A model generated the notes under the pieces. It saw only the letters and a program-made list of their open reading frames with translations, had not been told where the DNA came from and searched no databases. A DNA stretch of 64,000 bases from an uncultured Verrucomicrobiae bacterium (GTDB taxonomy: Bacteria > Verrucomicrobiota > Verrucomicrobiia > Chthoniobacterales > Chthoniobacteraceae): contig CAVYKI010000003.1 in assembly GCA_963769025.1 (NCBI GenBank), forward strand, positions 256,001 through 320,000, given 5' to 3'. Each line of letters opens with the position of its first letter. The first letter of the stretch is position 1. This document shows, in pieces, positions 23,955 to 24,120 of the stretch. The translations under genes and the position numbers were made by a program.

Positions 23955-24120
23955 GACTCAGCCTTGTGGATACGAGCTCGAGGCTCAGGCAACTGTTCGA
24001 GTTTGGATGCCCAAGGTGGCCGCGGGGACCGTGCTGCCGGACGGACTCAAAAGGTCCAAGGGACTTGCGCGATCTCACCACGGCCTGCTCCGCGGCGGTG
24101 GCCGCCGCCGCGGAGCCCTG
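23955..24120 (-). ncRNA. Predicted IS110 bridge RNA
   Basis: 5' hairpin at 24087-24116, then a target-binding loop whose guides match the flanks and a donor-binding loop whose guides match the element ends; exact transcript ends unknown. Confidence 0.85.

Follow-up and report, generated by a model that had tools for sequence, protein, structure and literature searches.

The 64,000-nt stretch of DNA analysed here (hereafter, the window) comes from an uncultured Verrucomicrobiae bacterium (GenBank assembly GCA_963769025.1, contig CAVYKI010000003.1, positions 256,001 to 320,000 of the forward strand) and carries an IS110-group insertion sequence of about 1.25 kb, which occupies positions 24184-22938 on the minus strand and has a CT core on either side. 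We consider it very probable that this element encodes a bridge RNA in its 243-nt left end together with a single gene for a DEDD/Ser bridge recombinase, and the copy is apparently intact. The bridge-RNA mechanism was described in 2024 for IS621 of E. coli (Durrant et al., PMC11208160; Hiraizumi et al., PMC11208158). The original prediction for this locus had placed a perfect hairpin and four guide matches upstream of the transposase gene; all of them were confirmed base for base on the minus strand. The bispecific layout of the IS621 type that it proposed is supported by the sense and order of the guides, by covarying helices, and by the tracking of guides and flanks across relatives. The element, its RNA and its immediate flanks are all read on the minus strand below.

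On the left side of the insertion, the host DNA adjoining the core is the left target (LT) CCCGTCC (24187-24193), followed by the left copy of the CT core (24185-24186), which precedes the conserved TGTAT start of the left end both in the window and in six relatives (L001-L006). The bridge RNA is encoded within the left non-coding end (LE; 243 nt, 23942-24184). Beyond the recombinase gene, the right non-coding end (RE) measures 26 nt (22938-22963) and contains a -35-like hexamer, TTGCTC (22956-22951), as well as the left donor ACAGTTG (22944-22938); the right copy of the CT core (22936-22937) and the host right target (RT) GCCGG (22931-22935) complete the occupied site. An LE of 243 nt combined with an RE of 26 nt indicates the IS110-group pattern rather than that of IS1111, as these are set out in Durrant 2024 (PMC11208160).

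Two guides were identified in each loop of the RNA. The left target guide (LTG) CAAGTCCCT = CAAGUCCCU (24059-24067) matches CCCGTCC|CT (24193-24185) at 7/9 positions, with the six core-proximal bases exact. The right target guide (RTG) CCGGCAG (24034-24040) is the exact reverse complement of CT|GCCGG (22937-22931; 7/7), including all of RT (5/5). In the donor loop, the left donor guide (LDG) ACAGTTGC = ACAGUUGC (23989-23996) is identical to ACAGTTG|C (22944-22937) at 8/8 positions; it had previously been set against the right end as ACAGTTG|C(T), of which the match through C stands and only the first core base is covered. The pentamer ACAAG (23967-23963), which had been taken as the right donor guide, is indeed the reverse complement of CT|TGT (24186-24182), but the full right donor guide (RDG) is the 9-nt AUCCACAAG (23963-23971), which pairs discontiguously with CTTGTAT (24186-24180). 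In this pairing, AG lies opposite the core, ACA opposite TGT and AU opposite AT, and CC is skipped and left unpaired. LTG ends in CU, and both RTG and RDG end in AG. RNAalifold independently paired CTTGT and ATG with RDG bases. This pairing of the first left-end bases was read as guide-donor complementarity and rejected as an RNA helix, and the donor-loop helices were assigned by hand instead of being taken from the RNAalifold result for the whole left end.

As a chance control, we generated 20,000 dinucleotide-preserving shuffles of the 243-nt left end. Single guide matches were found in 1102 (RTG 7-mer), 105 (LDG 8-mer) and 2813 (RDG 5-mer) of the 20,000 shuffles, and a match equivalent to that of LTG (at least 7/9, six proximal bases exact) occurred in 766/20,000. 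Any two guide matches were present together in 305/20,000 shuffles, and all four in 0/20,000.

Relatives of the element were collected by scanning genome contigs with the recombinase, which gave 273 relatives, and 80 loci were taken for analysis. Among the loci listed, the closest relative (L001, from a Spartobacteria metagenome-assembled genome, MAG) has 85% identity, five further relatives with 60-66% identity are found in Verrucomicrobiota MAGs, and the other relatives, with 39-50% identity, are distributed across many phyla. Taken by themselves, these relatives make a Verrucomicrobiota host probable.

When the window and six close relatives were aligned, a conserved left end starting with CT|TGTATG was observed. 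A sequence-only nhmmer profile of the conserved part was found upstream of the gene in 54/80 loci (55 rows). Using the window and the six relatives, we built a covariance model (R1; 173 positions, 46 pairs) with a hand-written structure consisting of a closing helix, a 5' stem-loop, a target loop and a donor loop, each loop having a basal stem and a distal hairpin. The R1 search resulted in 75 matches, five of which were hairpin-only, antisense or partial. The remaining 70 were full length and comprised the window itself (182.6 bits) and 69 rows in 67/80 loci, with two rows each in L046 and L051. The recombinase gene starts just after the R1 match in 69/70 full-length rows. In L046, the two copies lie close together on one locus (1301-1500 and 2684-2883). 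In L051, there are two bridge-RNA-like matches (1081-1264 and 1322-1493), one of them without a gene after it; here, an IS110 element has apparently landed immediately after the donor loop of a second one, close to the start codon of the latter.

In the window, the conserved RNA model covers 24124-23949, so the RNA span of 23955-24120 given in the original prediction was correct in location and slightly short. The conserved RNA is preceded by a variable leader of about 47 nt, which extends from the predicted transcription start behind a -10-like box (approximate bounds 24125-24170) and has no predicted conserved structure; the distance from core to model start is 61 nt in the window and 6-166 nt in relatives. 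The 5' strand of the closing helix, CCCAGG (24117-24122), pairs with the 3' strand CUUGGG (24015-24010) in the linker between the two loops, and this helix shows changes on both sides at 3/6 pairs in the seven close sequences and at 6/6 pairs in the family alignment. Next comes the 5' stem-loop (24087-24116), a perfect 12-bp hairpin, GCTCCGCGGCGG-CGGCCA-CCGCCGCGGAGC, with compensatory changes at 5/12 pairs among the seven sequences. The target-binding loop module (24016-24085) consists of a basal stem, an internal loop and a distal hairpin; its helices 3 and 4 have 99% and 100% of cells paired, and compensatory pairs at 7/14 and 1/5 positions, respectively, in the seven-sequence alignment. The donor-binding loop module (23956-24002) is the most conserved part and contains helices 5 and 6 in the seven-sequence alignment and helices 7 and 8 in the family alignment.

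The left end of the window folds better than 200/200 shuffles (z = -3.43), and standard pairs are present at 46/46 model positions. In the unfitted MAFFT alignment of seven sequences, 96.9% of cells are paired and 17/46 pairs have changed on both sides, which was reached in 0/500 shuffles; when the partners were slid by 1-3 columns, pairing fell to 33-43%. The family alignment, which was fitted to R1, has 92.4% of cells paired compared with 63.2% when shuffled and 37-46% when slid. By analogy with IS621, we infer that this RNA is made and bound by the recombinase.

Guides and DNA were then compared across the relatives. The guide tests were kept independent, in that the right boundary was taken from the LDG of each locus and the left boundary from its RDG. 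The rule for the left boundary was a reverse complement of RDG with G-T wobble allowed, together with the conserved left-end start; the exact reverse complement of the 5-nt RDG as a boundary rule fails in many loci. The 7-mer of a locus's own LDG followed by CT was found near the gene end, at the right end of the element, in 60/69 rows, and in three more with one mismatch; in the other six rows, 90 nt or less of contig remain past the protein match. Foreign LDGs matched the right end in only 3/552 tests. Nine different 7-mers were represented. Moreover, ACAG and ACCG switch in step in LDG and element end among close relatives.

RTG could be scored in the 56 rows that offered a boundary, a CT core and five bases of flank; these represent 39 distinct guide-flank combinations. 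The mean match to the right flank was 4.28/5, compared with 1.29 for non-self pairs. With one flank per distinct guide (n = 33), 145/165 positions matched, and 0/20,000 permutations reached this value (mean 45.6, maximum 72). LTG could be compared with the left flank in 45/69 rows, those excluded having no boundary, a contig end or an unaligned loop. The LTG offset was free inside the loop and the control was given the same freedom; the mean match was 5.23/7 versus 3.83 in the control. Across 31 distinct loops, 162/217 positions matched, compared with a permuted mean of 119.8 and a maximum of 137 (0/20,000 reach). Each guide tracks its own flank or element end across related loci, and guide/flank covariation, proposed earlier as a check on the bridge RNA, was thus observed at a level that permutations never reach.

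Individual loci illustrate these results. L001 has the same RTG as the window, and its filled site reads GGCACGCC-CT-[element]-CT-GCCGGG. An uninterrupted paralogous site, GGCACGCC-CT-GCCAGG, is located about 170 nt downstream of the filled one (L001 about 2590-2700), and the two sites together show that insertion took place at CT in L001. A Verrucomicrobiae MAG contains at least 11 copies of a related element (L038-L050), all directly after a GC-rich hairpin. The nine scored copies have the right flank ACCAA in 9/9 cases, which fits their guide, and the left flanks, following the hairpin, terminate in GCCGCC or GCGCC. In reverse orientation, copies of the target without an insertion were also seen near several of these loci. 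In a group of relatives from Pseudomonas, Marinobacter and Halopseudomonas (L061-L077), the base before T|TGTATGG at the left junction is A, C or G, with CT at every right junction. Insertion in this subfamily thus seems to tolerate a first core base other than C in the target.

Further examination of the RNA revealed a handshake dinucleotide after each 3' guide. For IS621, it is reported that the two bases following each 3' guide recognise the partner DNA at its positions 7 and 6, and that complementarity to their own DNA has to be avoided (PMC11208158). In the window, the target-loop dinucleotide CA (24032-24033) is complementary to G and T at donor positions 7 and 6, but not to the C present at each of target positions 7 and 6. 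In the donor-loop dinucleotide GC (23961-23962), the G (23962) is complementary to C7 of the target but not to G7 of the donor. Counted across the family, donor position 7 is paired by the first handshake base of the target loop in 38/39 cases, compared with 1/27 for the loop's own target position 7. For the first handshake base of the donor loop, the corresponding counts are 32/38 at target position 7 (with wobble pairs in three others) and 1/33 at its own donor position 7. The second handshake base is far less regular (18/39 and 12/38, respectively).

The recombinase gene (22964-23941) encodes a protein of 325 aa with a DEDD RuvC-like domain and a Tnp domain carrying the catalytic serine. 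Its frame is open throughout from the ATG at 23941 to the stop at 22964; the list of open reading frames (ORFs) puts the start earlier, at a TTG, and the relatives begin at the ATG. Both domains were detected by Pfam (PF01548, 2.1e-20; PF02371, 4.2e-18), and the protein scored 195.8 bits against NCBIfam NF033542, 'IS110 family RNA-guided transposase' (an equivalog with a cutoff of 140); the RNA-guided IS110 class is now named in NCBI annotation models. In a phmmer search, the only relatives in PDB were ISCro4 (9t56, 1.7e-29; the best) and IS621 (8wt6, 1.7e-28). Counted along the alignment, D11, E54, D96, D99 and S235-G236 of the window protein are opposite D11, E60, D102, D105 and S241-G242 of IS621. 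All five catalytic positions of IS621 (D11, E60, D102, D105 and S241), mutation of which is reported to abolish recombination (PMC11208158), are therefore in place, and the assignment to the DEDD/Ser recombinases made in the original prediction is borne out by both domains.

The ends of the element carry one more feature of the IS621 type and a putative second one. The donor sequence is enclosed by a subterminal inverted repeat of 3 bp, TCA...TGA, which is matched at 3/3 positions in the window and agrees with the short repeat of 2-3 bp described for the IS110 group (Durrant 2024, PMC11208160); across the family, 75/84 positions match compared with 60.7 when permuted (0/20,000 reach). In addition, a -10-like hexamer, TATGAC (24177-24182), lies at the same offset and spacing as in relatives and would form one half of a promoter at the circle junction. 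At the same junction offset and spacing, many relatives have TTGACA-17-TATCTT or similar, which matches the sigma-70 consensus at 9-11/12 positions. The discontiguous 9-nt RDG, both handshake dinucleotides, the subterminal inverted repeat and the putative split promoter are all additional to the features noted originally.

Several observations weigh against the presence of a working bridge-RNA element. In the window, the RE|CT|LE junction gives TTGCTC-17 nt-TATGAC, only 7/12 to the sigma-70 consensus. A scan of the integrated copy for sigma-70-like promoters detected none; its would-be -35 hexamer, GTCCGG (24205-24200), agrees with TTGACA at a single position. No second copy of the element was detected in the 64-kb window, and the target motif at three or fewer mismatches has 6 matches there versus 6.27 expected, so the site choice of the window element rests on one insertion and on the relatives. 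With regard to the guides, LTG has two distal mismatches to its occupied site (5/7 over LT). LDG covers the first core base alone and carries C in place of the expected T of the second core position (GCC versus GCT), a position that varies across the family. As for the comparative tests, the boundary rules left out some loci, and the family alignment, being fitted to R1, leans towards the R1 structure. Finally, of the checks by folding and covariance, the shuffles and R1 agreed with the original prediction, whereas Rfam gave no match: at gathering thresholds over the whole window it returned only two tRNAs, and at E <=10 over 22800-24400 it returned four chance-level matches and no bridge-RNA family, a result of little weight, as the presence of such a model in Rfam 15 is not established.

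The likeliest alternative is that the element is a resident fossil, that is, an intact-looking copy of the bridge-RNA family which is no longer expressed or mobile in its host. The single copy in the window, the integrated state without a promoter, the weak junction promoter and the two LTG mismatches would all agree with it. However, the open reading frame retains every catalytic residue, all model pairs are standard, and all guides agree with the present flanks and ends, which argues against decay. Furthermore, zero to two guide-target mismatches are reported to be usual in natural elements (Durrant 2024, PMC11208160). Active IS621 is likewise reported to show weak bridge-RNA expression from integrated loci (PMC13626964), and the promoter is re-formed on the circle in IS621-type elements (Durrant 2024, PMC11208160). 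The putative split promoter of the window element fits both the published circle-junction promoter and the weak expression of integrated loci. We therefore regard a fossil as unlikely, and mobility of the window copy would be expected by analogy with IS621.

It is highly improbable that the left-end structure acts only in cis, as a leader or as DNA repeats bound by protein that control recombinase expression or end recognition, rather than in trans as a guide RNA. The structure does end 12 nt before the start codon, so it would form the 5' untranslated region of any transcript reaching the gene, and end sequences repeated inside the element might in principle be bound by protein. Nevertheless, both target guides follow the host flanks from locus to locus, for which a leader or an end repeat would have no reason. 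The helices keep pairing through two-sided changes, which points to RNA. Moreover, the handshake bases are complementary to the partner DNA but not to their own; such cross-pairing is known from no mechanism other than that of bridge RNA (as reported in PMC11208158). The notion that the guide matches are due to chance and the GC-rich hairpin is an intrinsic terminator on the plus strand can practically be dismissed: 24087-24125 does score as terminator-like on that strand (the hairpin followed by CCTGGGTTTT), but only one such site was found in the scan, below the 1.5 expected from shuffles, the A-run that would provide the T-tail on the plus strand is present in only 2/7 aligned relatives, the stem is kept by compensatory changes, and none of the shuffles reproduced all four guide matches.

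The bridge-RNA element is inserted in host DNA that has a structure of its own. Two CCGGTGG...CCACCGG hairpins flank the insertion, one on the left at a distance of about 75 nt (24259-24288) and one on the right at about 30 nt (22868-22905) in the opposite orientation. The window contains no others, the number expected by chance being 0.01. When the empty site is rebuilt, it falls within a larger imperfect palindrome, which is probably a host intergenic repeat; a BLAST search of the rebuilt site against the window and the loci detected only the two flanking hairpins, and when folded, the rebuilt site shows only weak local pairing at the core. With the landing site inside a large host palindrome between the two hairpins, it is possible but doubtful that target DNA structure represents a second layer of specificity. 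Upstream of the element on the same strand (24824-26978, minus), there are ORFs that by reading look cysteine desulfurase-like and iron-sulfur scaffold-like (suf-like), together with a 107-aa frame. Two tRNA genes are present near the window ends (271-357 and 62731-62804).

If the window element works as IS621 does, it would leave the chromosome as a circle, and the joining of RE and LE would put TTGCTC 17 nt from TATGAC. The resulting transcript would fold into a 5' stem-loop, a target-binding loop and a donor-binding loop. Two recombinase dimers, one per loop, would then cut after CT through Ser235, and the two bases after each 3' guide would pair with partner DNA and thereby aid the strand swap. 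The outcome would be the element inserted between two CT cores, as seen in the window. Excision may be less simple than this, as a preprint on IS621 reports single-strand circles and donor-only recognition.

The window element leaves the known mechanism unchanged and adds one natural target specificity, about GTCC-CT-GCCGG. It also demonstrates that bridge-RNA guides can be read directly from raw sequence, and the approximately 30 distinct natural guide-target pairs obtained from the relatives are possible test cases or candidate orthogonal recombinases. A more far-reaching idea, that the window element and its relatives constitute a structural subtype of bridge RNA, is possible but doubtful. 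If true, this would be a bridge system that is orthogonal by nature, comes from a GC-rich host and combines a right target guide of 7 nt with an RNA scaffold of its own.

The question of whether the specificity is new was approached through the published data. In the supplementary IS110 donor and ncRNA alignments of Durrant 2024, an identical 18-nt junction is present at least twice in file 4 and three times in file 5, with different surrounding bases, and the 9-mer ACAGTTGCT occurs at least 490 times in file 4 and 985 times in file 5. Given the same junction in these data, the donor specificity is not new, contrary to the suggestion in the original prediction that it might be undescribed. The two target-guide strings of the window and the 11-nt target motif had no match in the searchable supplementary text of Durrant 2024 (files 3 and 4 in part; file 2 outside it). 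A full-text literature search for 'bridge RNA' with 'Verrucomicrobi' returned no paper, and the tree table of Durrant 2024 includes Verrucomicrobia recombinases (PMC11208160).

Other members of the wider recombinase family provide additional points of comparison. ISCro4 / IS622 (PDB 9t56; Perry et al., 10.1101/2025.05.14.653916) has the same two-domain recombinase, a comparison made by protein only. ISPpu10 of Pseudomonas putida is an IS110 element whose target is reported to lie in a conserved intergenic repeat beside a GC-rich stem-loop (10.64898/2026.03.19.712850). The multi-copy Verrucomicrobiae relative resembles it in landing directly after a GC-rich hairpin, whereas the rebuilt empty site of the window differs from it in being only weakly paired at the core. 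Elements of the IS1111 group share the recombinase family and the RNA-guided logic, with an RNA, named seekRNA (PMC13604230), that is encoded in a long right end and with subterminal repeats of 7-17 bp (PMC11208160). The window element, in contrast, has a right end of 26 nt and a repeat of 3 bp, and does not belong with them.

The closest published counterpart in layout is IS621. The two elements differ in that the window recombinase is distant (phmmer E = 1.7e-28 over residues 5-295), the window host is GC-rich, and the conserved RNA of the window comes after a leader of about 47 nt. RTG is 7 nt long in the window, and the pairing bases in the IS621 structure are G77-G80. The donor-loop module spans 47 nt in the window model, compared with nucleotides 110-177 of IS621. 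The closing helix (24122-24117/24015-24010) is found in the window RNA; the IS621 descriptions give a 5' stem-loop from nucleotide 1 and a flexible linker and mention no such helix, a comparison that holds by description only. On the other hand, as in IS621, the RNA lies in the long left end and has the order 5' stem-loop, target loop and donor loop. The 5' guides are in top-strand sense, the 3' guides are complementary, and the core is CT. At 9 nt and 7 nt, LTG and RTG also agree in length with the 8-9 nt and 4-7 nt of IS621-type target guides. The right donor guide has 9 nt and is discontiguous on seven donor bases, as reported for IS621 (PMC11208160), handshake dinucleotides follow both 3' guides, the recombinase combines DEDD with serine, and a putative promoter is split across the circle junction. 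Judged by sequence, the window element departs nowhere from the published IS621-type layout in the respects tested, the less clear points being the core base in LDG and the strength of the promoter. The rules of IS621 for guide sense, core, discontiguous RDG, handshake and subterminal repeat, and apparently also that for the split promoter, are followed in a distant clade with Verrucomicrobiota at its centre.

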